The position numbers and the translations under genes are program-made. The notes under the pieces are model-generated. The model saw nothing but the letters and a program-made list of their open reading frames with translations. It did not search any database and was not told the DNA's origin. This document shows positions 1,583 to 57,833 of a DNA stretch of 64,000 nucleotides, one piece after another (position 1 is the stretch's first letter; each line of letters starts with the position of its first letter). Location of the stretch: the IMG/VR virus record IMGVR_UViG_3300034031_000020, positions 15,452 to 79,451 of that record. One strand, given 5' to 3'. The DNA is from a virus.

Positions 1583-2364
1583 GTGGTGGATCGAAATTCA
1601 GCTCCGAAGTCCCGAAGGGCGACGCGTGGGGCGTGGAGAACGCCGTCGCTGAGGCCGCCGCCGAGTTCGAGGCGACCGGCCACAGCCCGATGATCCCGTG
1701 CATCGCGGTGATCGGAATCAAAGAGGTTCAGCTCCGGTCCGGCGACGACGGCCCCACCCGGGTCGCGGTCGTGAACATCCGCCGGATCGAGGCACTCACC
1801 ACCGACAGCGCCATCCGGACCGGGCAGAAGCTCGTCATGAAGGCGATGGAGAACCGGCGCGGCCCCGACACCATGCTCCCGTTCGACGAAGCCGAAATGA
1901 TCACGCAGGCATTCGGCGGGGTCGACGTCGCGACCCTCGAACGAGAGGAGCAAGACGCCCGGGAACTGGCCGAGGACAAGGCGATGGACGACCCGCAACG
2001 TCTACGGCGACACCTCGTCGCCGTCCACAACCACACTGCCGACGAGATCGAAGGCATGGAGTGGGCCGACGTCCGGACCCTGCACGACTCCGACCACGAA
2101 CGCGACCCCGCCGACGGCCTCGTCCCCCACGACAAGGACTGGTGGGAGTGGCGACGGGCCTCGCTCGAAGCGGCCGAAGCGGACGCGGACGCCGAGAACA
2201 CTGCCGACCCTGACGACGGACCCGCCACGGAGATAGAGGACGGCGAGGACGAGGAGGAGGACGACCTGCCGACGCACATGGTCGACAACCTGCCCGACGA
2301 CGACGCTCCCGCAGTGCCGGGAGTCGAGTTCAGCGGCGACGACAAGAACAGCACGGAGGACTAA
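1579..2364 (+). CDS. Hypothetical protein with acidic C-terminus
   Basis: 261-aa ORF with strong GC3 bias, coupled start, Asp/Glu-rich tail. Confidence 0.75.
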   Translation: MSGGSKFSSEVPKGDAWGVENAVAEAAAEFEATGHSPMIPCIAVIGIKEVQLRSGDDGPTRVAVVNIRRIEALTTDSAIRTGQKLVMKAMENRRGPDTMLPFDEAEMITQAFGGVDVATLEREEQDARELAEDKAMDDPQRLRRHLVAVHNHTADEIEGMEWADVRTLHDSDHERDPADGLVPHDKDWWEWRRASLEAAEADADAENTADPDDGPATEIEDGEDEEEDDLPTHMVDNLPDDDAPAVPGVEFSGDDKNSTED

Positions 2365-3141: not shown

Positions 3142-4542
3142 ATGACCAGAGACGCTGACGTCCTGTCCGTACCCGACGACCCATGGGAGGGGATGCTCGA
3201 CGAGAACGGCGACGTCGTTGAGCCGCCGGACGATGACGCGACCTCGGTCACCCGCGCCGAACGGGCGTCCGCCGACCCGGACGACTTCTGGCAGGCCCGG
3301 CCGATCCTGAAGCACATCCACGCCTTCGCCCGCAGCCAGCGGGTAGGCCCGTGGGCGGTCCTCGGGACGGCGCTGGCCCGGGTCATCGCGCAGACGCCCC
3401 CGGAGATCCAGCTCCCCCCCACCATCGGCTCGTACGCGAGCCTGAACCTGTTCGTCGGCCTGGTCGGGGAGTCCGGCGACGGTAAGGACGCCGCGCAGGA
3501 AGTCGCCGCCGATGCGCTCTACATCGAGAACCCCACGTTCCGGGTCGCCCCCCTCGGTTCCGGTGAGGGGCTCGCGCACATGTTCATGCGGCCCGGCAAG
3601 GCCACGAAGGACGACCCGTACCCGGAGGCCGAGCAGTACAACCGGTCCAGCCTCGTCACCATCGGGGAGATCGACTCGTTGGCCGCCCTCGTCCAGCGAC
3701 AGTCGTCCACCGTGACGACGCAGCTCCGTCAGGCGGCCATGGGGCAGCAGCTCGGGTTCTTCTACGCCGACGCGGCGAAACGGATGATGGTCCCGCCGCA
3801 CTCCTACCGGCTGTGTCTCGTCGCGGGCATCCAGCCGGAGCGGTCCGGCATCCTGTTGAACGACGAGGCCGGTGGGACCCCGCAGCGGTTCATCTGGCTG
3901 CCGACCGGCGACCCCGGCGCGCAGCGCAGCGTCCCCCCGGCGCCGACCCCCATGATCTGGCAGCCGCCGGACTGGATGTATGCCGAGCGGGCGCACTCCA
4001 ACGGGCAGATGAGACGACTCGTCACCCTCCCGGAGATCGTCCGGGACATGATCATTGACGCGCGGGTGAGCAGGCTCCAGGGGACCGGCGAGAAGCTCAA
4101 CTCCCACGCGTTGCTGACCCGGGCGAAGGTCGCCGCCGCGTTCATGATCCTGGACGGCCGGTACCGGCCGGAGGAAACCGACTGGGACCTGTCCGGCACC
4201 GTCATGACGGTCTCCGACACGCAGCGGGCCCGCTGCCAGCGCGCACTCCAAACCGAGGCGAAGAAGGCCAACCTCGGCAAGGCCCTGGCCGACGCGGACC
4301 GGACCCTCGTCGTGGAGGAGCACATCGACCGGGTAAAGGTCACGAAGTGTTCCGAATCGGTCAAGCGCATCTTAAGGATCAACGGCGCAGTGACCAGTGG
4401 GGTGCTCCGCCAGAAACTCCACGTCAGTAACCGAGAGTATATGGACGCGGCGGTTGACGTTCTCCACCTGGCGGGGGAGATTCAGGTCGAGGAGACTGAG
4501 TACCGGGGGCAGAAGGGGAAGCGGATATGGCTCCCCGAGTAA
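3142..4542 (+). CDS. DUF3987/YfjI-like P-loop replication helicase
   Basis: Walker A LVGESGDGKD plus GSGEGL, GEID, GIQP and GTPQRF motifs; followed by an AT-rich inverted-repeat region. Confidence 0.75.
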   Translation: MTRDADVLSVPDDPWEGMLDENGDVVEPPDDDATSVTRAERASADPDDFWQARPILKHIHAFARSQRVGPWAVLGTALARVIAQTPPEIQLPPTIGSYASLNLFVGLVGESGDGKDAAQEVAADALYIENPTFRVAPLGSGEGLAHMFMRPGKATKDDPYPEAEQYNRSSLVTIGEIDSLAALVQRQSSTVTTQLRQAAMGQQLGFFYADAAKRMMVPPHSYRLCLVAGIQPERSGILLNDEAGGTPQRFIWLPTGDPGAQRSVPPAPTPMIWQPPDWMYAERAHSNGQMRRLVTLPEIVRDMIIDARVSRLQGTGEKLNSHALLTRAKVAAAFMILDGRYRPEETDWDLSGTVMTVSDTQRARCQRALQTEAKKANLGKALADADRTLVVEEHIDRVKVTKCSESVKRILRINGAVTSGVLRQKLHVSNREYMDAAVDVLHLAGEIQVEETEYRGQKGKRIWLPE

Positions 4543-6426: not shown

Positions 6427-6668
6427 CGCGCCGGTCCGGCCCCGGGGTCCGGGCGAAGCGGCAACAGGCCCGCGACGCGCGGCGCCGGGCGGCGAAACCG
6501 TTGACAGTGGCCGCGATCGCGCGGTCGGTGGCCACGAACTCGTTGTCCGGGGCCGTCCTCGGCGGCCAGCCGCGTACGGCCCGGGTCCCGGCGTACCGGG
6601 CTGACCCGGCGGTCCAGCGCCCGAACCTGATTCAGCAGTGGATGAGGGCGAGGGGCCGGACGCGGTGA
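6423..6668 (+). CDS. Basic hypothetical protein
   Basis: GTGA-coupled Arg-rich ORF. Confidence 0.55.
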   Translation: MTRRSGPGVRAKRQQARDARRRAAKPLTVAAIARSVATNSLSGAVLGGQPRTARVPAYRADPAVQRPNLIQQWMRARGRTR

Positions 6669-6742
6669 GGTGGGTCGAGTGGTTGCATCAGCACGACTGG
6701 GAGTTCTTCCTGTGGTGCTGGCTGATGGTGATGATCTTCTGA
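6665..6742 (+). CDS. 25-aa Trp-rich hydrophobic peptide
   Basis: MRWVEWLHQHDWEFFLWCWLMVMIF; start overlaps upstream stop (GTGA); below the ORF-track cutoff. Confidence 0.45.
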   Translation: MRWVEWLHQHDWEFFLWCWLMVMIF

Positions 6743-6758
6743 TGGGGTGGGTTCACGC

Positions 6759-7055
6759 ATGTTGATGACACCTGCCCCGCCGAGGGGCACCGATGAGGCC
6801 ATCACGATCATCCGGGACGAGGACGGGCGCCTGCACCTGGAGGGCGACGCCGAGCCGCCCGCGTACACGGCGTTCTCGGCGGAGTTGCTGGCGATGCTGC
6901 GCCGCAGCGGCTCGCTGTGGGCGTCGCTGGACGGCGACACGGTCGTGATGCGGTTGACGGGCCTGACCCTGCGGTACCAGCTCACCGGGGAGGTCGACCT
7001 GGGTGACGCCCACGTCGGCCAGCGGGTCACTGAGGACGGGGAGCCGTGGCCATGA
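6759..7055 (+). CDS. Hypothetical protein
   Basis: ORF in operon, stop overlaps next ATG. Confidence 0.6.
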   Translation: MLMTPAPPRGTDEAITIIRDEDGRLHLEGDAEPPAYTAFSAELLAMLRRSGSLWASLDGDTVVMRLTGLTLRYQLTGEVDLGDAHVGQRVTEDGEPWP

Positions 7056-7591
7056 GGATGCGGCTGGCGACGTCCCGGTTCGACGACGAAACGCGTGTCC
7101 TCGTGGAGGCTCTCGACGCTGAGCACTGGAAGACGCTGCGCGACATCACGTACGGCCCGTACACGGTCCCGGCGGGGTTCCGCACGGACTTCGCTTCGGT
7201 CCCCCGCGTCGCCGTGTGGTTGATCCCCCGGTTCGGCCGGTTCACCCTCGCCGCGATCCTGCACGACTATCTGTTGACCTTGGTTCGGGCGGGTTCGCTG
7301 GCTTCGGTGGAGGCGGACCGGGTGTTCCGGGAGGCCCTGGCCGGGTTGGATACCCCACCGGTCCGGCAGTGGTTGATGTGGACGGGTGTCCGGTGGGGCG
7401 CGGCGGCGAGCCCGTACCGGCGGGCCGGTTGGTGGCGGACCGCGCCGCAGGTCCTGGGGATGACGGTGGCCGTGTTGTCGACGGTGGTCATCCCGGTCGC
7501 CGTGGTCGCGGTCGCGCTCGGGCTGGCGGTCTATTCGCTGTTCGAGGCCGCAGCGACCGGCGGGCGCCGCCGGGGCAACCTGACCACGTAG
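7052..7591 (+). CDS. DUF1353-family protein with C-terminal membrane helix
   Basis: VPAGFRTDFASVPR...AAILHDYL...ADRVFREAL signature. Confidence 0.85.
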   Translation: MRMRLATSRFDDETRVLVEALDAEHWKTLRDITYGPYTVPAGFRTDFASVPRVAVWLIPRFGRFTLAAILHDYLLTLVRAGSLASVEADRVFREALAGLDTPPVRQWLMWTGVRWGAAASPYRRAGWWRTAPQVLGMTVAVLSTVVIPVAVVAVALGLAVYSLFEAAATGGRRRGNLTT

Positions 7592-11901: not shown

Positions 11902-13593
11902 GTGACGCTCCTGTTGGTGCTGCCCGGCGGCGCCACCTCCACCCCCGCCACGGCCACCCCCGCCACCATCGCCCGGACCGTGGCCGTGGCGGGGGCGCCC
12001 GCGACCGGCTCGACGGCGGCCCCGGTGACCATCGCGCGCACCGTCGCCGTCGCCGGTACCGCAGCGACCTCGTCGGCGGCCACGGCCACCCCCGCCACCA
12101 TCCCCGCGACGACGACCGTCGCCGGGTCCGCGTCCACCTCGGCGGCGGCCACCGCCAACCCGCCCACCGTGGCGGGCACGACGACCGTCGCGGGCGAGCC
12201 GGGCGCCGGTTCCACCGCGTCACCGGCCACCGTCACGCGAACCGTCGTGATCGCGGGCACGGCGATGGCGGGCGCCACCGCGACCCCGACGACGGTCGCT
12301 CGGACGGTGGCCGTCGCGGGGGTGGCCACAGCGGGATCCACACCGGCCCCGGCCACGATCACCTCGACGGGAGCCGTCGCCGGGGCAGCGCAGGGCGGGG
12401 TCACCGCTGTACCCGCGACCGTCACCGCCGTCACCGCCGTGGCCGGTACCGCCGCCACCGCGACGGGCTCGTCCGCGACCCCGCCCACCGTCACCGGGTC
12501 GGCGGCGGTGAGCGGCGCGCCCGCGACCGGCGCCACACCCGCTCCCGCGACGACGATCACCAACGCGGCCGTGGCCGGTGCCGCCACAGCGGGCACCGCA
12601 CCCACACCCGCGACCGTCGCCCGCGCCGCCGTGCTCGCGGGCGCGGCGTCCGCGAGCCGGACCGCCACCCCGGCCACGGTCCCGGGCGTCACCGCCGTCA
12701 CCGCCACGGCCACGCTGCCCGCCGTCGCCACCCCGGCCACGGTCGCGCGGGCCGTGGTCGTGGCCGGTGACGCGTCGACGGGCCTCGCGCCGCTCCCACC
12801 GACGATCGCGCCCCCGGTCGTCGCGGTGGCCGGGCAGCCCGCCGTGGGTCACACGGCAACCCCCGTGACCGTCGCCCCGCCAGCGACCGCCGTCGCTGGT
12901 ACCGCCGTCGCCGCGTCGGGTTCCACGGCCACCCCGGCGACGGTCAGTCCCGCGACCACGGCGGTCGCGGGATCCCCCGCCGCCGGTTCCGCTCCAGCTC
13001 CCGCGACGACCGCCCCGCCCAAGGTGACCGTCGCGGGTGTCGTCGCACTGTCGCGGACCGCCACCCCCGCCACGGTCGCGCGGACCGTGGCCATCGCGGG
13101 TGTCGCGGGCGCTTCACGGACGGCCACCCCCGCCACGGTCGCGGGTTCCGTCACGGTGGGCGGCATCCAGGCGGCGGGAGTGGCCCCCGCCCCCGTCACC
13201 GTCGTCGGCGCGGTGCTCATGGCGGGTGTCGTCCAGGTCGGGTCGACGGTCACGGCGACCACCGTCACGGCCGTCGCCGTGATCACCGGGCCGACGGTCA
13301 CCAGCCCGACGACGGTGGTCGTTGCGACGCTGCACGGCGCGGCCGTCACGGCGGGTTCGGCGTCCGCGAGCCGTAGCGCCACGGTTCCCGTGCTGACCGT
13401 GGCGGGGTTCGCGTGGGTGTCGGCGACCGTGTTCAGCGACGTGATCCCCCACGTGGATGTGGAGTCCGCGACCCGGTTCGTCGCGGCACTGGACGGCGTG
13501 GCCCGCATGACGTCCACCCCCGGCTCGTCGACCAGGTTGACCGCGTCGACGGAGAACGTAGGGTCGGCGACCGTCACGGGGGTCGTCGGGTGA
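11902..13593 (+). CDS. Ala/Thr/Val/Pro/Gly repeat protein (fibre- or whisker-like)
   Basis: About 20 degenerate ~25-aa repeats of the type ATPATVARTVAVAG. Confidence 0.7.
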   Translation: MTLLLVLPGGATSTPATATPATIARTVAVAGAPATGSTAAPVTIARTVAVAGTAATSSAATATPATIPATTTVAGSASTSAAATANPPTVAGTTTVAGEPGAGSTASPATVTRTVVIAGTAMAGATATPTTVARTVAVAGVATAGSTPAPATITSTGAVAGAAQGGVTAVPATVTAVTAVAGTAATATGSSATPPTVTGSAAVSGAPATGATPAPATTITNAAVAGAATAGTAPTPATVARAAVLAGAASASRTATPATVPGVTAVTATATLPAVATPATVARAVVVAGDASTGLAPLPPTIAPPVVAVAGQPAVGHTATPVTVAPPATAVAGTAVAASGSTATPATVSPATTAVAGSPAAGSAPAPATTAPPKVTVAGVVALSRTATPATVARTVAIAGVAGASRTATPATVAGSVTVGGIQAAGVAPAPVTVVGAVLMAGVVQVGSTVTATTVTAVAVITGPTVTSPTTVVVATLHGAAVTAGSASASRSATVPVLTVAGFAWVSATVFSDVIPHVDVESATRFVAALDGVARMTSTPGSSTRLTASTENVGSATVTGVVG

Positions 13594-13925
13594 GCCGCTC
13601 CGGCCGGTCGGGGACCGGGAACTCGGCGTACCGCACGAACCGCGCGCAGTTGCTCGCGCAGACGGACCGATGCGCGCTGTGCGGGCACGGCGGCGCGAAG
13701 ACGGCCGACCACAAGGTGCCTCACGCGTTGTGGCCGCGCGACGCCCGGGGCGCGCTGCACCCTGGCTTCGATGACCTGGCGAACCTGCAACCGGCGCACG
13801 GCAGCATGGGCGGCCGTCAGCCGCACAACCCGTGCCTGGTGTGCGGGGAGATGTGCAACCAGAAGCGGGGGGCCCGGGTCCGGCACCGGCCACAGACCCG
13901 GGACTGGTTCCCGAACCGCACCTGA
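13590..13925 (+). CDS. HNH endonuclease (packaging-associated type)
   Basis: CALCG...TADHKVP...NLQPAH...CN.KRG motif; GTGA coupling. Confidence 0.85.
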   Translation: MSRSGRSGTGNSAYRTNRAQLLAQTDRCALCGHGGAKTADHKVPHALWPRDARGALHPGFDDLANLQPAHGSMGGRQPHNPCLVCGEMCNQKRGARVRHRPQTRDWFPNRT

Positions 13926-14925: not shown

Positions 14926-15149
14926 GTCCAGGCGGAGCCGTATCAGGGGAAACACCGGGGGCGGGTCACTCCGGGCCTGAGAGGACCCCGGGCGACCCGC
15001 CCCACCGGCGGACCGGACCGGGTGAAACAGCCCCTGCGGGAGGTGGGGCCCGCGCGAGCCGACCACGTCCCGGGGCGCATCCTCCGCCGTCCGATCTGTG
15101 CTTGACCATACCCGCCGACCTGCCATGATCGGAGGAACAGGGAGGGGAG

Positions 15150-17045
15150 GTGACGGGGGTGACCCTCAACCTCGTCGACGTGTCCCGCTATCAGGTCGAA
15201 GTCGACAACCCGCTCGACCTGGTCAAGGCGAAGACCGCCGGGTACCAGATCATCAACGTGGCGCTGACCGGCGGCAAGGGCTACGTCTCCGGTGCGTGGG
15301 CCCGGACCTACCTGGAGCAGGCCGCGACCCTCGGGTACGGCCGCATGGTCTACCACTGGCTCGACGGGCGCAGCACCGGCGCCGCGCAGGCCGCCGCGCA
15401 GATCAAACGGATGAAGGACCTCTTCGGGTCCGCGCTGACCGGGTTCGCGCATCAGGTCGACGTCGAGGAGACCGGCAAGGACGGGATCCCGCCGCCGACA
15501 TGGGCGCACGTCCGCGAGTACGTCGACGCCGTCCAGCAAGCCCTCGGCCGACACATGGTCATCTACTCCGGGGACTGGTGGTGGAAACCGAAGGCGTGGC
15601 CCGGGGCTACGGTGACCCCGTACCTGATGGCGCAACCCAACACGGGGAAGCTGACGGCGTACCCCGGCGACACGGCCGCACAGTGGACCGCCGGGTACGG
15701 GGGGTGGGACACCCTGGCCATCATGCAGTGGGGTGTCCACGCACTACCCGGCACCGTCGGCTGTTCCCTCGCCGCGCTCCGTGACCACGGGGTGTGGGCG
15801 GACCTGACTGGAGGCGATGCACTGATGCCGCAAGCTGACCCCGGCAACGCACAGCCGGACGCGTGGATAGGACCTGCCGCGCCCTCGGCGCTGGTCGCCG
15901 AGCTCGCCGACGTGGGCCGCGACCTGATGCGCCAGGCCGCCGAAGCCGACGAACCCCGGCACCTCGACGACGCAGGGGACCTGGCCCGGTGGGCGGCCAC
16001 CATCGGTGGCGACGTCGAGCGTGACCCGCTCCGGCTCGACCTGATGCCGATGGGCGCCGGTGAGGTGTGCTCCTCCACGATCGTCGCGGAGATGGACGAC
16101 TGGATCGCCGCCGGGGGGACGAACCTCGGCTGCGTCGGCGACAAGGACCACGGCACCGGGTTCCACCGAGGCGCGAACTACATCCCCGCCACCGACTACA
16201 GCAGACGGCGGGACCCGAACGGCGCCGACGGCCCGTTCATCAACTGGAACGCGTCCTGCGCGGGAGACTTCCGCCACGGCGGGAAAGCCGCCCTGCGGGA
16301 AGCGGGCCGCAAGCTGCTCGCCGTGCTCATGGCCGGTGGCTACCCGATGATCTGTGAGTTCATCGGCCAGCCGTGGCCCGACCGACCCGTCATGTACTGG
16401 GCCAGGTGGGAGGGTGTCAGCAATCTCCGGGAGTACACCGGCTCCGGTCACGACGTCTGGTACCACATCTCGTGGTACCGGTCCCGCTCCGATCAACGCC
16501 CGTACATGTGGAGGAACAGCATGGCACTCGAAGCCACCGACAAGACCTGGCTCACCTCGGCCGCGTTCACCAACGCCGTCGCGGCGGCCACCGTTGAGGC
16601 GCTGCTCACCCGGAAGATCGACCCGACGAACGACCTCAACCCGAACCGGACCTTCCACACGTTCATCCTGGACGTTCAGAACATGCGCGACGCGTGGCGC
16701 CACGCCCTCACCGACCCGAAGGTGAAGGGGCGCCCGCTGCCCGGCTCCGGCTTCGACAAGCTCATGAAGTCGGCGGACACCCTCGCCGCCGGGCTCGCCG
16801 CCCTGCGCACCGAGAACAGCGCGGCGGAAGCGGCCACGGCCGCGTTGGTGCGGGAACTGATCCAGCTCGTCCAGGCCGGAGGCGGTGACGTCGACTCGGC
16901 GGCGATCCTCAGCAAGCTTGACACCGTCCAGGCCGAGGTCCGCGCCGCCGCCACCGAGGCCGGTGACCGGGCCCGGGAGGATGTCCTCGACGCGCTGCGG
17001 AGGGGGGCCGAGGCCGAGGCCGCCGCACTTCGCAGCACGGAGTGA
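15150..17045 (+). CDS. Modular endolysin: GH25 muramidase + Zn-peptidase-like domain + helical C-terminus
   Basis: DVSRYQ, YHW, DVE, IYSG and MQW GH25 motifs; second domain GCVGD..H..GFH...DYS...A..GD...H.WYHISW; start may be 15159. Confidence 0.8.
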   Translation: MTGVTLNLVDVSRYQVEVDNPLDLVKAKTAGYQIINVALTGGKGYVSGAWARTYLEQAATLGYGRMVYHWLDGRSTGAAQAAAQIKRMKDLFGSALTGFAHQVDVEETGKDGIPPPTWAHVREYVDAVQQALGRHMVIYSGDWWWKPKAWPGATVTPYLMAQPNTGKLTAYPGDTAAQWTAGYGGWDTLAIMQWGVHALPGTVGCSLAALRDHGVWADLTGGDALMPQADPGNAQPDAWIGPAAPSALVAELADVGRDLMRQAAEADEPRHLDDAGDLARWAATIGGDVERDPLRLDLMPMGAGEVCSSTIVAEMDDWIAAGGTNLGCVGDKDHGTGFHRGANYIPATDYSRRRDPNGADGPFINWNASCAGDFRHGGKAALREAGRKLLAVLMAGGYPMICEFIGQPWPDRPVMYWARWEGVSNLREYTGSGHDVWYHISWYRSRSDQRPYMWRNSMALEATDKTWLTSAAFTNAVAAATVEALLTRKIDPTNDLNPNRTFHTFILDVQNMRDAWRHALTDPKVKGRPLPGSGFDKLMKSADTLAAGLAALRTENSAAEAATAALVRELIQLVQAGGGDVDSAAILSKLDTVQAEVRAAATEAGDRAREDVLDALRRGAEAEAAALRSTE

Positions 17046-18118
17046 CCGACCTGTCGTACGGCTTCGCGGCGCAGGTCTACGTCCTGGCGAACCTGGCCAT
17101 CGCACTGGGGTACCTGTGCGTCCCCTGGCTCGTCCTGCCGTATATCCACCTGCGGCGCCGGACGATAGCCGCCGGGGCCCTGTTCTTCCTCGGGTGCACC
17201 GGGTCGCACATCGACATGGTTTACGACGTCCTTGTTGGTCACGACCAACACCCACCCGTGGGGTGGGTGGCCGTGTGGTGGCATGCCCTTCAGGCCGTCG
17301 GGACGTGGGCGTTCATCATGCTGTTCCGGGGCGAGTTGAACACGGCGGACAGGGTCCTCGACGAGATCCGGGCGAAGACCCCGAAGGTGGAGCAGGACAT
17401 AGCCGCCCTGCCGCCCGGAGACGTCCGGGACGAACTGGTCGAGACCCTCGCCGCGCTGCGGGTCACTCACCATCCCGTCGAGCCCCCGGCGGTCGAGGTG
17501 CCCGACCCGGCGCTCCAGAAGCTCCCCGGGAAGGGCGAATGGGTCAAGGCCGCCCCCGGTGTGTTCATGATCTGCGGAACCCTCGTCGTGATCGCGATCC
17601 TCGGCGTCTACGCGACCCTCGTCGTGACCGGCTCGCCGACCGATGCGTTCTTCCGCCTGATCAACCTGTTCCTCAACGCGCTGGGCACGCTGGTGACGAT
17701 GGCGACCCTGTCCGTCGGCCTTGTGCACGCCCGGCGGACCCTGGAGAACCGGCGGATCGCGCTCAAAGGACAGGAGGAGGCTCACCGGGCGGCTGACGCC
17801 GCCGAGGCCGCCGCGAGGGGCGTCAACGGGGAGCTTACCGCCCGGATCGTCAAGGCCGCCGCCGCTGCGGCGAAGGACGCGGCGGCGCAACTCCAGCGCG
17901 AACGCGACCAGGCAGCCACCGCCCTGCAACGGTCCAGGGACGAGTCCGCCGCCGCCGTCACCGCAGCGACGAAACTCCAGACGGAACGGGAGGTCGGTGT
18001 CCGCAAGGACTACGAGAAGGATCGGCGCGTGTACGAGACCGACCGGCAGGGCTACGAAGCGGACCGGCAGACCTACGAGCAGCGGAGACAACCCGGCGAG
18101 GACGACACCGGGGGGTGA
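17042..18118 (+). CDS. Multi-pass membrane protein in holin position: ETR1-like N-terminal TM domain + holin-like TM pair + coiled coil
   Basis: GTGA overlap with the endolysin stop; about 5 hydrophobic segments; NLAIALGYLCVP and FFLGCTGSH motifs; NGELTARI motif. Confidence 0.7.
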   Translation: MTDLSYGFAAQVYVLANLAIALGYLCVPWLVLPYIHLRRRTIAAGALFFLGCTGSHIDMVYDVLVGHDQHPPVGWVAVWWHALQAVGTWAFIMLFRGELNTADRVLDEIRAKTPKVEQDIAALPPGDVRDELVETLAALRVTHHPVEPPAVEVPDPALQKLPGKGEWVKAAPGVFMICGTLVVIAILGVYATLVVTGSPTDAFFRLINLFLNALGTLVTMATLSVGLVHARRTLENRRIALKGQEEAHRAADAAEAAARGVNGELTARIVKAAAAAAKDAAAQLQRERDQAATALQRSRDESAAAVTAATKLQTEREVGVRKDYEKDRRVYETDRQGYEADRQTYEQRRQPGEDDTGG

Positions 18119-18250: not shown

Positions 18251-18664
18251 TCACCCGAAGCCGAGCCACCGCGTCACCGTCGGCAGGATCCACGACGCCA
18301 ACAGGTAGACCATGGTGACGCAGACCAGGACGTCCCGCCCGATGCCCCACCGCAGGGACCGGCGGCGCAGCTCGTCCATCCCGTCCGACTCCACGTACAC
18401 CCGGGGCACGATCAGGTCCTGGTATCGCGGCTCACCCGCCCGTTCCACCGTGATCCGCCGCGTGGTCTCCCCCACCGGCTTGGCCGGGGCCTCGTTCAGC
18501 GGGACCCGCATCGTCGGGTCCGTCGGATAGTCCGTCGAGGCCGGGTACTCCGGCGGGTCGCCGACGGCGCGGTACCCGGGCGCGTAGCTGGGGCCACCCG
18601 GAGATTCGTTCCGTCGGTGCCGACTGCTGCGACCGCTTCCGCGAGGTGGCGTCTCGAACGTCAT
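18251..18664 (-). CDS. Hypothetical protein with C-terminal membrane helix
   Basis: Likely start MTFETPP at 18664; hydrophobic C-terminus; convergent on hairpin 18125-18191. Confidence 0.55.
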   Translation of the reverse strand: MTFETPPRGSGRSSRHRRNESPGGPSYAPGYRAVGDPPEYPASTDYPTDPTMRVPLNEAPAKPVGETTRRITVERAGEPRYQDLIVPRVYVESDGMDELRRRSLRWGIGRDVLVCVTMVYLLASWILPTVTRWLGFG

Positions 18665-18725
18665 GATCGCAGCGTACGGCGGTCGCTCGCTCGCGCCGAT
18701 CGGCCGAGTTGCTACGATGCGGCGT

Positions 18726-18870
18726 GGCTCGGATGCCCGGAGTGGCCTATCGGGTGACCGGCGGCGGCGGCGTACGAGACGGTAGCTGCGACCGCAGGGA
18801 AGACGGCTGGAGGCTGGAGTGTCTGCCCACCTCACTGGCCCACCGGGGGTTCGAATCCCCCTCTGAGCCA
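18726..18870 (+). ncRNA. tRNA-like RNA with expanded (~90 nt) anticodon/variable region
   Basis: Acceptor GGCTCGGA/TCTGAGCC, D-arm CCCG-GAGTGGCCTAT-CGGG, T-arm GGGGG-TTCGAAT-CCCCC; extended -10 TGcTACGAT at 18710-18718. Confidence 0.65.
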
Positions 18871-18873
18871 CCC

Positions 18874-19395
18874 TCACACCCCGTGACCTGGGAAGACTCT
18901 CCCGAACATCACTCCCCGTGAGATATCACAACGGGTGACGGTAAGGGCAAACGATGATCCAACTGGGGTCACGCAGGGTGAAGTCCGGTCCAGAGCGTGA
19001 CGACTCAGACGGATTGCCGGGTGTCAAGGGGCTGAGCGCAGTAATTCTGAGTGACGGGGAGTGAACCGCAACGCTCTGACCAGGGAAAACGTGGCCTCCC
19101 CGCATTTTATGCAGTCACCCGGAGTGAAAATTACGGAGAGAGAGAATATCGCGCGGCGCGGCGCGCCGCGACCTCTAGATCCACTAAAAAATTGGCCCCC
19201 CACAGGGCTCTGACCAGGCATTACTACACTGAGTTACGATTACTCTGCGTGAGACATAGAGGGATGTAACTCTGGGGGCGTTACGCTCACACACGGTATT
19301 TCCTGGTCATGCATGGTAACGCATAGGGATGCATGGGGGATGCGGGGTGGATGGGGAGGGTCGCCTCTACCCATCACACCATCACGCAACGTGGA
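18874..19395. other. Non-coding lower-GC region with TNAC-N5-GTNA repeats; candidate genome-end/cos region
   Basis: No credible ORF; seven TNAC-N5-GTNA boxes; GAGAGAGAGAA and AAAAAATTGGCCCCCC tracts; CTCTGACCAGG twice. Confidence 0.5.
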
Positions 19396-25712: not shown

Positions 25713-26093
25713 ATGACGGCTGAACCGCGCGAGCCCGGCGAGGTGGAGAAGGCCGTGGAGACCGACCTGGCCGGGATCGACCGGCTCGGTACCGGCAAGG
25801 TCTTCCTCGCGGCGAGCGCGAGGAAGTTGGCCAGGGCGATCGACGCCCGGGGTGACGACGAGGCGCCGTCGGCGCTGGCGAAGGCGGTCGACTCCCTATT
25901 CAAGGTCATGGCGGCCCTGATGGCGAAGGATGGGACAGGCCATGACGACCTCAAACAGCTCCAAGGGCTCTTCGGCAGTCCTGACGCAGGAAGCTCTTCG
26001 GTGTCCCCCGCGCTTCGGTACCCGCCGGAGCCTGGACCGGCCAACGGTCGGACCCGCAATCGCCAAGGTCGCAAGGGCGCTCGACCCGAGTAA
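25713..26093 (+). CDS. terS: Terminase small subunit (probable)
   Basis: GEVEKAVETDL...LARAID pattern; immediately precedes and overlaps terL; GGAGG RBS. Confidence 0.65.
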   Translation: MTAEPREPGEVEKAVETDLAGIDRLGTGKVFLAASARKLARAIDARGDDEAPSALAKAVDSLFKVMAALMAKDGTGHDDLKQLQGLFGSPDAGSSSVSPALRYPPEPGPANGRTRNRQGRKGARPE

Positions 26094-27591
26094 GGAATCC
26101 CTACCCCACCAGCGGTACATGTACGACGTGATCGGCGAACTGGACCCGGAGACCGGGCTGTTCGCGTACGACGACGTCACCCTAGTCGGGCCCCGGCAGG
26201 TCACCGGGAAGACCGAGTTCCTGTTGCCCCTGATGGCGTGGAGGTGCACCGGCCTCGGACATGAGGTCGTCGAGTTCGCGCGGCGGGAGTTCGGCATCGA
26301 CGTCCCCGAGCCGGGACCACAGAAAGTCATGTACACGGCGCAGCGGGCGGAGGACGCCCGGCAGAAGTGGCGGGACGTCCACGTCGAGCGGATCAAAGAG
26401 TCCCCGATGCGGGCGCTGTGGTCGAAGCCGCCCCGGCTCCGGCTCGCCGCTGAGGCCATGTTCTGGCGCAACGGGTCCGTGTGGGTGCCGGGTTCGACGA
26501 CGGGGAAGTCCGCCGGTACCGGTGACCAGCTCGACCTCGGCGTCATCGATGAGATGTGGGCGCAGACGGACGGCGGGACGGAGATCGGGATGCGCCCGAC
26601 GATGCTGACCCGGCCGTGGCGGCAGTTGGTCCGGGCCAGCATGGTCCCGGGCCTGTCGCGGGTGGCGCCGGAGAAGTGGGCGTACATGCGGCAGAAGATG
26701 TCCGCCGGGCGCGCGAAGGTCGAAGCGGACCTGCGGCACGGTTCGGCGTACTTCGAGTGGTCGGCGCCGCCGGACGCGGCGCCGTCGGACCCGGACACGT
26801 GGTGGAACTGTATGCCCGCCCTGGGGTACACGGTGCCGTTGAAGAACGTCCAGTCGGACTTCGACGACCTCGACCTGATCGACTTCTGCGCGGAGTATCT
26901 GGGCTGGCCACCGACCGGCGCGCTACCCATGTGGAGCGTCATCTCGGAGCAGACGTGGGCGGACCTGTGGCACCCGGGCCGGTATCAGGAACCCATCGCG
27001 ATCGGGGTCGACTCGAACCCGGAACTGACCGTTGCGTCGCTGGGGATGGCCGCGCAGTGCACCGACGGCGGGGACATCCACCTGGAGCTAATTGATCGCA
27101 GGGCTGGCGTCAACTGGCTCGTAGAGGCGATCCTGTCCATATGCAGGTCACAACCCGTGTGCGCGGTCGGCATCGACCGCAACGGTCCGTTAGCGGGCAT
27201 TGTGCGACCGTTGCAGCGTGCGGCGGAGGAGCAGCGGCTGGACATCACCATCGCCGGGAACCACGAACAGGGCCTGAACTCGGCCGAGGTCGCGGCGGCG
27301 TGCGCGCAGCTCTACAACGAGACAGGGGAGCACGATGACGATGATCCCGAGGCCGAGGCGGCGACCCTTCGCCGTGTGCGTCACATCGGCCAGGAGGAGC
27401 TCACAGCGGCCGTCGGCGGCGCGGTCCGGCACTACCAGGGGGACCGGTGGCGGTGGCACCGGGCGGGGTCCGCTATCGACGTCTCCCCTCTGTACTCGGT
27501 CACTCTGGCGCGAGCTGCGGGTGAGGCTGAGGAGTGGATGGGCGGCGCCTATGACATCACTACCTCCCTCGGTGGGGCTGTTCGCCAGTGA
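25930..27591 (+). CDS. terL: Terminase large subunit
   Basis: PHQ, GPRQVTGKT (Walker A), GVIDE (Walker B), IGVD and IDVSPL nuclease motifs; start may be 25942. Confidence 0.9.
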   Translation: MGQAMTTSNSSKGSSAVLTQEALRCPPRFGTRRSLDRPTVGPAIAKVARALDPSKESLPHQRYMYDVIGELDPETGLFAYDDVTLVGPRQVTGKTEFLLPLMAWRCTGLGHEVVEFARREFGIDVPEPGPQKVMYTAQRAEDARQKWRDVHVERIKESPMRALWSKPPRLRLAAEAMFWRNGSVWVPGSTTGKSAGTGDQLDLGVIDEMWAQTDGGTEIGMRPTMLTRPWRQLVRASMVPGLSRVAPEKWAYMRQKMSAGRAKVEADLRHGSAYFEWSAPPDAAPSDPDTWWNCMPALGYTVPLKNVQSDFDDLDLIDFCAEYLGWPPTGALPMWSVISEQTWADLWHPGRYQEPIAIGVDSNPELTVASLGMAAQCTDGGDIHLELIDRRAGVNWLVEAILSICRSQPVCAVGIDRNGPLAGIVRPLQRAAEEQRLDITIAGNHEQGLNSAEVAAACAQLYNETGEHDDDDPEAEAATLRRVRHIGQEELTAAVGGAVRHYQGDRWRWHRAGSAIDVSPLYSVTLARAAGEAEEWMGGAYDITTSLGGAVRQ

Positions 27592-27675: not shown

Positions 27676-28020
27676 ATGACGTCACCGACGGTCGGCCGTA
27701 TCCCCGCCGAGATGACGCCCGCTACCGAGCTGGTCGAGGTCGAACCCGCCGAGACGGTGAAAGAGCACGTGTCGACGCTGCTCTCCAACGTCGCGATCCT
27801 GGCGATGGTCGTCGGCCTGACCTGGGGCCTGTGGTCGCACCTCGGCCCGTGGGCGCTGTGCGCCGGGGGTTTCGCGCTGGCCGTCCTGGTGAGCGTCACC
27901 GACTTCGCCCGTCGGCCCCAGCTACTCCCCGAGGCCGAGCCCGCCCCACCGCCGAAGGGCCCTCCGGGGCCGACGTCGGCGGGCAACCTCCACACGAAGG
28001 GACCGGGTGCTGAGTCATGA
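27676..28020 (+). CDS. Small membrane protein preceding portal
   Basis: Two hydrophobic helices; ATGA coupling to the portal. Confidence 0.7.
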   Translation: MTSPTVGRIPAEMTPATELVEVEPAETVKEHVSTLLSNVAILAMVVGLTWGLWSHLGPWALCAGGFALAVLVSVTDFARRPQLLPEAEPAPPPKGPPGPTSAGNLHTKGPGAES

Positions 28021-51643: not shown

Positions 51644-52021
51644 TCATGACGGCACCACCACGAGGCGGTTACCGACGGCGGCGACCCGGGCGGCGGCGCG
51701 GCGCAGCAGCCGCTTCCACGGGTTGTCGTCGTCGGGCCAGTTCCGGTCCTTCCACCACCTCCACAGCCCGAGCAGAGCGGCGGCGAAGACCAGGCCCCGG
51801 AAGGCGTCACCGTCGAGGAGCGCGCCCCACGAGTGGACGGCCACGACGACGAGACCCGGACCGGCGAGCAGCCAGAGGATCTGGACGACGCGGACCAGGC
51901 GACGGGTTGCCGCCGCGTCCGGCCAGAAGCGGAGGGCGAGGTCCGCGAACATGTGGAGGTAGATGTAGAGGATCATGTCGGCTACGGCGACGCCGGTCGC
52001 GACTAGCAGGAGGTCGCTCAT
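51644..52021 (-). CDS. Membrane protein
   Basis: Three hydrophobic segments. Confidence 0.6.
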   Translation of the reverse strand: MSDLLLVATGVAVADMILYIYLHMFADLALRFWPDAAATRRLVRVVQILWLLAGPGLVVVAVHSWGALLDGDAFRGLVFAAALLGLWRWWKDRNWPDDDNPWKRLLRRAAARVAAVGNRLVVVPS

Positions 52022-57247: not shown

Positions 57248-57441
57248 TCGAGGCCCCCGAAGCCGTCGATGAAGTTGTACGCCCCGTACATGACGAGGAG
57301 CACGCCCCCGGCAGTCGCGACCCCGGCGGCGCGGCGGAGGTCGGGGTTCCACTCGGCGACCGCCTCGGCGGCGTGGGCGCTACCCACCCACACCCCGAGG
57401 AGCAGCAGCACCAACCCGAAGATCACGCGTAGCCCGTTCAT
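57244..57441 (-). CDS. Small membrane protein
   Basis: Two TM helices, ATGA coupling. Confidence 0.6.
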   Translation of the reverse strand: MNGLRVIFGLVLLLLGVWVGSAHAAEAVAEWNPDLRRAAGVATAGGVLLVMYGAYNFIDGFGGLE

Positions 57442-57833
57442 GCCCACGGGCTCCACAGCGAGACCCAACCGGTCGTGCCGAGCAGGGCGACCACGGCCCC
57501 GACCGCCCACCCCAGGCCCACACCCCGGGGCCCGCCCGCCGTGCCCGCGCGGGCGGACATCCGCCGCGACAGAGCGGCCTGGCTGTTGCTGTACGCCAGC
57601 CAGCCGACCGCCAGGGCCGTGGCCAGGGCGAAGGCCGTCACCCCCAGATAGAAGTGCGGCACGGACACCCACATCCACATGAGCGCGCCGACGGCGGCCA
57701 CAAGCACGGCGATCCGCCAGAAGTACGGCCCGAAGGCGATCATGTAGGCGTGCTCGTGTCCGATCCGGCGCCATGCCGCGTTCTCCATGACTCGCTGCCG
57801 GTGCTCCCGGTTCATCCGTCGACGCTGACCCAT
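57438..57833 (-). CDS. Membrane protein (Spd-like position)
   Basis: Three TM helices; GGAGAGAGGG RBS. Confidence 0.65.
   Translation of the reverse strand: MGQRRRMNREHRQRVMENAAWRRIGHEHAYMIAFGPYFWRIAVLVAAVGALMWMWVSVPHFYLGVTAFALATALAVGWLAYSNSQAALSRRMSARAGTAGGPRGVGLGWAVGAVVALLGTTGWVSLWSPWA

Follow-up and report, generated by a model that had tools for sequence, protein, structure and literature searches.

Studies of the ethylene-binding domain (Pfam PF25487, ETR1_N) have dealt with it as the input module of receptor kinases, in plants, in cyanobacteria and in a small number of other bacteria. In ETR1 the Cys-x3-His motif, made up of Cys65 and His69, supplies the Cu(I) ligands. Tyr32, Ile35 and Pro36 of helix 1 and Ile62 of helix 2 are said, after work by Wang et al. 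in 2006, to be among the residues required for binding. Here we describe a phage gene that joins a diverged relative of this domain to a holin-like protein beside an endolysin gene. It lies at 17042–18118 on the plus strand of a 64,000-nt stretch of viral DNA (the window), which covers bases 15452–79451 of a 79.4-kb IMG/VR record, IMGVR_UViG_3300034031_000020, rated complete by CheckV. Its product is probably the membrane component of the lysis cassette.

Seven residues are required for ethylene binding; in ETR1 the copper cofactor is coordinated by Cys65, Asp25 sets the position of His69 and forms a bond to Lys91 of helix 3, and bacterial ETR1_N proteins bind ethylene as well (PMC11819568). 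The ETR1 variant D25N is a functional receptor with ∼100-fold lower ethylene affinity (PMC11971883). Like the ethylene receptors (Arabidopsis ETR1/ERS1, Synechocystis SynEtr1, Azospirillum AzoEtr1), the phage protein has three N-terminal membrane helices, of which helices 1 and 2 align with equivalents of Tyr32, Pro36, Cys65 and His69, and the Cys-x3-His motif is nearly invariant in the phage family. Unlike them, it scores below the Pfam cut-off, has Asn in place of Asp25, and carries a third helix that cannot be aligned and has a His-x2-Gln motif. It also lacks any GAF, kinase or receiver output and stands in a lysis cassette, fused to a holin-like protein with two transmembrane segments (2-TM).

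On the lysis side, the closest described arrangements are those of actinophages. Efficient lysis by F1-cluster mycobacteriophages requires both LysF1a (2 TM, N-in/C-in) and LysF1b (PMC13056207), and Gordonia phages have lysis cassettes with multiple transmembrane domains (TMDs) (PMC9671378). In these high-GC phages, two different membrane proteins are encoded directly 3′ of the lysin gene(s) and are needed jointly for timely lysis. The C-terminal half of the protein described here has an equivalent predicted 2-TM, N-in/C-in build with a charged tail. Here, however, the partners are fused, one of them comes from a sensor-domain superfamily with conserved Cys and His, and no sequence similarity to the actinophage proteins was detected. 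Holin T and antiholin RI of T4 (PMC11413866) offer a works-like analogy alone, in that a partner responsive to an environmental cue modulates holin triggering. RI senses superinfection by a periplasmic domain, whereas the putative sensor here would be an intramembrane metal-site domain, and the proteins are unrelated.

The lysis cassette

The window has a G+C content of ∼70% and the gene content of a phage, with a polymerase/primase gene upstream and terminase, portal, protease and capsid genes further on. When the open reading frame (ORF) and the surrounding 15 kb were compared by tblastn and megablast with 50,697 cultured-phage records, no phage resembling the window was found at the DNA or protein level; three family members likewise gave no tblastn match in these records. 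The cassette contains the following features.

15102–15129, plus strand: promoter-like site (TTGACC, 16 nt, TG-CATGAT), 20 nt 5′ of the endolysin start
15150–17045, plus strand: endolysin gene, 631 aa, with an N-terminal GH25 muramidase domain plus further domains
17042–17045, plus strand: GTGA overlap, the GTG of the membrane-protein gene lying on the endolysin TGA (read from the sequence)
17042–18118, plus strand: membrane-protein ORF, 358 aa, GTG start

ORF 17042–18118 is a genuine gene to judge from its G+C content at the third (GC3, 0.89) and second (GC2, 0.46) codon positions, which matches that of the adjacent genes. The endolysin matched Glyco_hydro_25 of Pfam (E 1e-11) and endolysin families of PHROGs. 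No signal or membrane segment is present at its N-terminus, and to reach the wall the enzyme must therefore rely on a membrane protein and holin-type export. Between the endolysin gene and the next gene, there is only ORF 17042–18118 together with high-GC shadow ORFs that overlap it. The gene after 18118 is convergent, and the cassette therefore appears to consist of two genes, endolysin and membrane protein. The original prediction had the membrane-protein gene overlapping the endolysin stop, as it does through the GTGA at 17042–17045, and an identical GTGA junction is present in two related contigs (L002 and L012). The overlap supports translational coupling of the membrane-protein gene to the endolysin gene. 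A consensus promoter scan gave 2 sites against 0.3 expected, which is a pattern match alone, and the site at 15102–15129 may drive the two genes as a lysis operon.

We propose that the ORF is the membrane component, holin or holin regulator, of this two-gene cassette, with two partners fused into one chain; on the evidence of gene order and protein build this is the probable reading. It is preferred because the ORF is the only membrane protein coupled to the signal-less endolysin, because the GTGA overlap and the endolysin-first order recur in L002 and L012 with the modules split, and because genes for the N-terminal domain (N-domain) also follow endolysins of the Amidase_2 (L007) and phrog_3084 (L034) types, while gp065 of a Maribacter phage adjoins the endolysin gp066. 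The ORF would thus be a natural fusion of two lysis-cassette membrane proteins whose genes are adjacent and overlapping in sister phages. Module 1 (residues 1–112) would be a diverged, output-less three-helix bundle of the ETR1_N superfamily, and module 2 (∼125–358) a 2-TM hairpin, N-in/C-in, followed by a charged cytoplasmic helix of ∼120 residues. Both together would let the GH25 endolysin reach the wall, with the ETR1_N-like module serving as a regulatory or structural subunit of a hole-forming assembly and not as a kinase-signalling hormone receptor.

The convergent ORF directly 3′ of the lysis gene (18251–18877, minus strand) encodes 208 aa with a C-terminal hydrophobic anchor. Its homologue in L012 (2399–2770, minus strand; 34% identity over 147 aa) occupies the equivalent convergent position, and the ORF may be part of the lysis module. 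The endolysin itself is a mosaic: the GH25 N-terminal residues 6–227 are 55% identical to the L002 endolysin (6442–7104), and the central residues 222–482 are 54% identical to the L012 endolysin (3–734). The membrane genes 3′ of the endolysin stay the same in the window, L002 and L012.

Architecture of the 358-residue protein

Five membrane helices were predicted from hydropathy, loop charges and two AlphaFold models.

17042–17377, plus strand: ETR1_N-like three-helix membrane domain, residues 1–112, predicted N-out/C-in
17063–17134, plus strand: TM helix 1, residues 8–31, with Asn17 (17090–17092), Tyr24 and Pro28
17156–17233, plus strand: TM helix 2, residues 39–64, with Phe48, Phe49, Cys52 (TGC, 17195–17197), Ser55 and His56 (CAC, 17207–17209)
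17264–17332, plus strand: TM helix 3, residues 75–97, with His81 (17282–17284), Gln84 (17291–17293), Trp89 and Phe91
17414–18118, plus strand: holin-like half, residues ∼125–358 and stop, a separate gene of ∼195–227 aa in related contigs
17540–17725, plus strand: TM hairpin of TM4 (167–196), outside loop TGSPTD and TM5 (201–228), from hydropathy and AlphaFold2 (AF2) helices
17726–18115, plus strand: cytoplasmic tail, residues 229–358, with 25 basic and 24 acidic residues

The AF2 model of the N-domain reached a predicted local distance difference test (pLDDT) score of 93, with helices at residues 8–30, 39–64 and 75–112. Helix 3 extends into the cytoplasm to about residue 112–122 in the AF2 models, and the linker carries a conserved amphipathic helix (127–143). 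By the positive-inside rule, the charges of RRR at 38–40 and ARRTLENRR at 230–238 indicate an external N-terminus and a cytoplasmic linker and tail; the predicted topology agrees between fused and split forms. The hairpin has hydropathy peaks of 2.4 and 1.55, and P172, C178, T180, G197, P199, T200, D201, F204, R205, L206, N208, F210, N212 and G215 are invariant in 12 homologues. AF2 gave a single helix from 201 to 348, so that the tail is continuous with TM5. Within the tail, Asn262, Gly263 and Arg268 form a conserved motif (17825–17845), all three being invariant in the same 12 homologues.

The original prediction had the TM pair ending in NGELTARI and followed by a coiled coil. The motif is present at residues 262–269, but it lies ∼35 residues into the cytoplasmic tail and not at the end of the TM pair; a long helix does follow, but it is predicted as one single helix. 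No Pfam or NCBIfam domain was found after residue 112, in keeping with the stated lack of a kinase or GAF output. The C-terminal half (C-half) matched no Pfam or PHROG family, and in the ESM Atlas its scores were ≤0.81, with generic long-helix structural neighbours. Among 78 relatives, one weakly matched Phage_holin_2 (E 0.006). A holin-type build, that is, small size, at least one TMD, a charged cytoplasmic C-terminus and a place beside the endolysin, is found in both modules where they are separate genes (114–122 aa and 195–227 aa). An internal start for a separate C-half product was looked for; the GTG at Val116 (17387) has no convincing Shine-Dalgarno sequence, and the idea of a dual product is unsupported.

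Fused and split forms

Whole-protein homologues numbered 12, five fused and seven stand-alone C-halves (P0006–P0012, 197–227 aa). The fused forms are 301–364 aa long, 60–66% identical and from differing sources; a search for longer proteins with the family profile gave nothing beyond these five. The closest relatives of the N-domain are three stand-alone proteins of 113–120 aa. The IMG/VR contig L002 has the order endolysin, GTGA overlap, N-domain gene (114 aa), ATGA overlap and C-half gene (211 aa), and these three genes, again overlapping where they join, are found in the metagenome contig L012. The two halves of the predicted fusion thus exist as adjacent overlapping genes, which upholds the earlier claim of an ETR1-like domain joined to a holin-like 2-TM protein. 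To judge from the junction sequence, a one-base shift at the ATGA would yield the fusion. A sequencing frameshift or error as its origin was considered and ruled out by the five independent, divergent fused sequences.

A tree of N-domains made to count fusions and fissions had support on 1 of its 10 branches. Complex prediction for a stand-alone N-domain with a C-half gave a score of 0.01, which is evidence neither way.

Relationship of the N-domain to the ethylene-binding domain

A profile built from four close homologues, run with HMMER against 1.84 billion representatives, yielded 99 clusters at E ≤1e-3. About 95 of these are stand-alone proteins of ∼110 aa, and three rare long relatives carry the domain with other C-terminal domains. 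Two of these, P0067 (562 aa; N-domain plus PAS-HisKA_3-HATPase) and P0098 (404 aa; N-domain plus GGDEF), indicate that the N-domain fold can serve as an input module. The third, P0080 (506 aa; N-domain plus IMP dehydrogenase, IMPDH), is odd and could be a gene-call artefact.

ETR1_N was the sole Pfam match to residues 1–120, covering positions 3–84 of the 97 in the profile, and the window protein scored 13.8–14 bits (E 0.06–0.07). When 78 relatives were scanned singly, 47 matched ETR1_N, all below the cut-off (best E 5.3e-5), and other families were matched by three relatives at most. Genuine ETR1_N domains (96–115 bits) were gathered from 17 of 301 Bacteroidota genomes, and the phage-family alignment was compared with 16 genuine ETR1_N domains by hhalign. 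The two profiles matched with a probability of 95.5% and E 1.6e-8 over 54 columns in helices 1 and 2. The score was 47.9, against 12 (P 0.18) with either profile reversed, and 20 column shuffles scored ≤15 (P 0.05 or worse). The resemblance to the ETR1 binding domain stated in the original prediction therefore passed a profile–profile comparison that its reversed and shuffled controls failed.

A reciprocal whole-genome search with the phage-family profile placed a genuine ETR1_N domain as the top match in 3 of 5 genomes (E 5e-7 to 8e-6), and the match covered all three helices once. In a further genome (G001) genuine ETR1_N was the second-best match. G001 is a Ferruginibacter metagenome-assembled genome with two relatives: a stand-alone member of the phage type (L013; C64:2747–3004, minus strand; 146-aa open frame on a 3.7-kb contig) and a genuine ETR1_N domain that opens a 936-aa open frame (L014/L029; C13:400438–400722, minus strand). 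In the ESM Atlas, the nearest clusters consist of proteins of 107–138 aa, have ETR1_N in 37–64% of their members and have Uroviricota as their commonest taxon; the structural neighbours include ETR1_N-HisKA-receiver proteins.

Such likeness could in principle arise by chance between hydrophobic helices. A single-sequence Pfam score of 14 bits against a gathering cut-off of 27 would fit that explanation, and so would the solved-structure fold searches, which returned generic helical bundles alone. The search of the PDB with the N-domain model gave no match at E ≤1e-3, and the VIA wide fold search gave helical bundles with Z ≤8.1 and surfaced no ETR1 membrane-domain structure. A search of BFVD also gave no match at E ≤1e-3; its weak rows (actinophage 'holin' or 'membrane protein', 9–16% identity) were not counted as evidence. 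Against chance stand the profile–profile P of 1.6e-8, compared with 0.05 or worse in the controls, the genome-wide recovery of genuine ETR1_N in the reciprocal search, the ETR1_N matches of 47 of the 78 relatives, and the coincidence of the functional Cys, His, Tyr and Pro positions. Chance resemblance was thus tested and excluded by profile statistics, controls and reciprocal search, and we hold it to be extremely improbable. Residues 1–112 are, by profile comparison, a true but distant and diverged relative of the ETR1_N ethylene-binding domain, and the domain belongs by the same measure to the ETR1_N superfamily, outside the Pfam family as currently delimited.

Conserved residues and the putative metal site

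The motifs quoted in the original prediction are present, NLAIALGYLCVP at residues 17–28 and ALFFLGCTGSH at residues 46–56. The hhalign alignment reproduced its pairing of phage with ETR1 residues: Asn17 with Asp25, Tyr24 with Tyr32, Pro28 with Pro36, Cys52 with Cys65 and His56 with His69. Conservation was counted in 104 aligned relatives. In helix 1, Asn17 is kept in 95, so that the noted Asn at the Asp25 position is a family trait, and Ile20, Gly23 and Tyr24 are kept in 94, 89 and 102. In helix 2, the metal-ligand positions Cys52 and His56 are kept in 98 and 100, which answers the question whether homologues retain them; Phe48, Phe49 and Thr/Ser55 are kept in 100, 99 and 100. Helix 3 has a signature of its own, His81-x2-Gln84...Trp89-x-Phe91, in place of the Lys91 region (His81 98/104, Gln84 97/104, Trp89 84/104, Phe91 97/104). 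The Pro28 column is variable: 35 relatives have Pro there, 45 have Ala and 14 have Gly. The position of ETR1 Ile35 is taken by Val27 and that of Ile62 by Phe49.

At the level of the alignment, the phage family retains the metal-ligand positions, and the Asp25/Lys91 pair is replaced by Asn17 together with His81-x2-Gln84. Counted in residues from the outer helix ends, Asn17, Cys52, His56, His81 and Gln84 are placed about equally deep within the outer membrane half, from which we infer a single Cys/His(/His) site. The conserved polar residues most likely form a metal or cofactor site of this kind, with metal binding suggested by the retained ligand positions.

If such a site were occupied as in the receptors, the ETR1_N-like module might hold Cu(I), bind ethylene or another small molecule and gate the holin hairpin by a conformational change passed through the extended helix 3 and the linker, so that the timing of lysis would respond to copper, ethylene or a similar signal. 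The near-invariance of the Cu(I)-ligand Cys and His speaks for this, as do helix 3, whose long cytoplasmic extension into the linker resembles a signalling helix, the relatives in which the domain forms the N-terminal part of a histidine kinase or of a diguanylate cyclase, and the binding of ethylene by bacterial ETR1_N proteins noted above. Yet Asp25 is replaced by Asn, the change that lowers the affinity of ETR1 so strongly, and neither the Lys91 partner nor the rest of helix 3 is conserved. Most relatives are stand-alone and have no fused effector, and some adjoin capsid rather than lysis genes, which goes against a classical ethylene sensor. On balance we consider ligand-gated lysis unlikely.

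Gene neighbourhoods of the relatives

Gene contexts were read from 11 distinct viral or metagenome loci, a small and non-random sample; a scan of genome contigs and a scan of metagenomes gave one locus each. In L007, an Amidase_2/PG_binding endolysin gene is followed by genes whose products are, in order, a 1-TM protein (93 aa), the N-domain, a multi-TM protein (173 aa) and a protein with a TM segment plus helix (133 aa). L034 has a phrog_3084 endolysin gene, then the N-domain gene, then a gene for a 181-aa multi-TM protein. In L006 the N-domain gene comes after a tail-fibre gene and a 3-TM protein gene. In L036 (3968–4273) and L037 (2895–3236) it lies directly 3′ of the major capsid gene and is followed by a multi-TM protein gene. 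A second membrane protein often accompanies members of the family, whose genes are found in lysis cassettes frequently, though not always.

A genuine Bacteroidota ETR1_N domain used as tblastn query matched gp065 in all eight Maribacter phage Molly/Colly records.

L038 2893–3762 (NC_062751.1 36990–37859): gp065, ETR1_N-like, of Maribacter phage Molly_1

The gene for the gp065 protein (YP_010357114.1; 289 aa, hypothetical) lies just 5′ of that for the annotated endolysin gp066. Like the window protein, gp065 is output-less and endolysin-adjacent; its residues ANIVIGVSY...FCGIGH have Asn where ETR1 has Asp25 and keep the Cys-x3-His intact. It differs in its length, in an apparently soluble and distinct C-terminal part, and in preceding the endolysin rather than following it. 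Maribacter phage Molly gp065 is a possible experimental system.

The recurrence of the N-domain also bears on which half would make the hole. The ETR1_N-like module might itself be the holin, with 3 TM segments, N-out/C-in topology and a short charged C-terminal tail as in class I, and the 2-TM half would then act as an antiholin or as an accessory factor for timing, with conserved polar residues that pack helices or line the hole and bind no cofactor. The N-domain is the one element common to cassettes with three endolysin types, and the membrane partner varies, being a 2-TM protein with a long helix here and a multi-TM protein of 173–181 aa in L007 and L034. This constancy favours the N-domain as holin, and in its stand-alone form it matches what is operationally called a holin in size, predicted topology and charged tail. 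Near-invariant intramembrane Cys, His, His, Gln and Asn over such divergence are, however, rare in holins, and a binding site is also what the homology to a cofactor-binding sensor domain suggests; invariance and ancestry together favour a cofactor-binding regulatory role of the N-domain. Several cassettes also hold other candidate holins. We therefore treat the N-domain as holin as a possibility worth keeping in view, though a rather unlikely one.

The protein might, on the other hand, have no part in lysis and merely be encoded 3′ of the endolysin, serving instead, for example, to exclude superinfecting phages, to handle copper or redox state, or to modulate the physiology of the host. Relatives that adjoin major capsid genes (L035, L036, L037 and L010) would suit such a role, and the L010 gene runs against the direction of the structural genes, as those of morons do. 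Three contigs keep the overlap of its start codon with the endolysin stop, which argues against a non-lysis role. So do the recurring adjacency to endolysins of three unrelated types and the fact that no other membrane-protein gene adjoins the endolysin. A non-lysis role is, in our estimate, decidedly unlikely.

A role in lysis, as membrane component of the cassette, remains the reading that we prefer, and several observations weigh against it. The N-domain of the window protein stays below the Pfam gathering cut-off of ETR1_N, and its helix 3 was left unaligned by hhalign. The window protein belongs to no holin family in Pfam or PHROGs. N-domain genes lie near major capsid genes in four loci (L035, about 4001–4285, L036, L037 and L010), so the family is not tied exclusively to lysis, and that of L010 (4914–5228) stands on the strand opposite the structural genes in the manner of a moron. 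Finally, one of the other small 2–3 TM ORFs elsewhere in the phage could be the true holin. Such ORFs, with two or three strong hydrophobic segments, lie at 27676–28020 (plus strand), 51644–52021 (minus strand) and 57438–57833 (minus strand) of the window and at 1810–2037 (plus strand) of the genome.

Other genes of the window

An ORF for an HNH endonuclease (13413–13925, plus strand; phrog_338, E 2e-8) lies ∼1.2 kb upstream of the endolysin gene and ∼12 kb upstream of the large terminase gene (25930–27591). The ORF at 11902–13593 (plus strand, 563 aa) consists almost wholly of Ala/Thr/Pro/Val-rich repeats (ATPATV...VAG units). The 2 kb that hold it are the most GC-rich of the window (0.77), and it comes after a 586-aa ORF that has no PHROG match.

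Significance

What is new here is the natural fusion of an ETR1_N-like domain with a holin-like partner. It puts a known sensor fold into surroundings that are new in both gene order and protein architecture. A literature search found no paper linking the ETR1_N domain to phages or holins; automated cluster names in the ESM Atlas already label some phage proteins as ETR1_N-containing. The fusion in the window, together with the split forms in sister contigs, provides a Rosetta-stone link of the domain to a specific holin-like partner. Beyond this locus there is a large clade, carried mostly by phages, whose members lack an output and retain the copper-ligand Cys and His, and such copies stand directly beside endolysins in several unrelated cassettes.

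The boldest form of the idea is a cofactor-bearing, ligand-responsive holin in which a Cu(I)-type Cys/His site directly gates the fused hole-forming hairpin, and we think this improbable. If it were true, a soil phage would time its lysis by copper or redox state or by a small molecule that is gaseous or unsaturated. The protein would be the first lysis effector with a sensor domain of its own, and the stand-alone phage ETR1_N-like clade would be a previously unrecognised class of lysis regulators.

For phage lysis, the family described here is a candidate new class of holins or holin regulators with a possible metal site. For the biology of ethylene receptors, it offers a minimal, isolated relative of the binding domain of ∼110 aa, which could be easier to express and solve.

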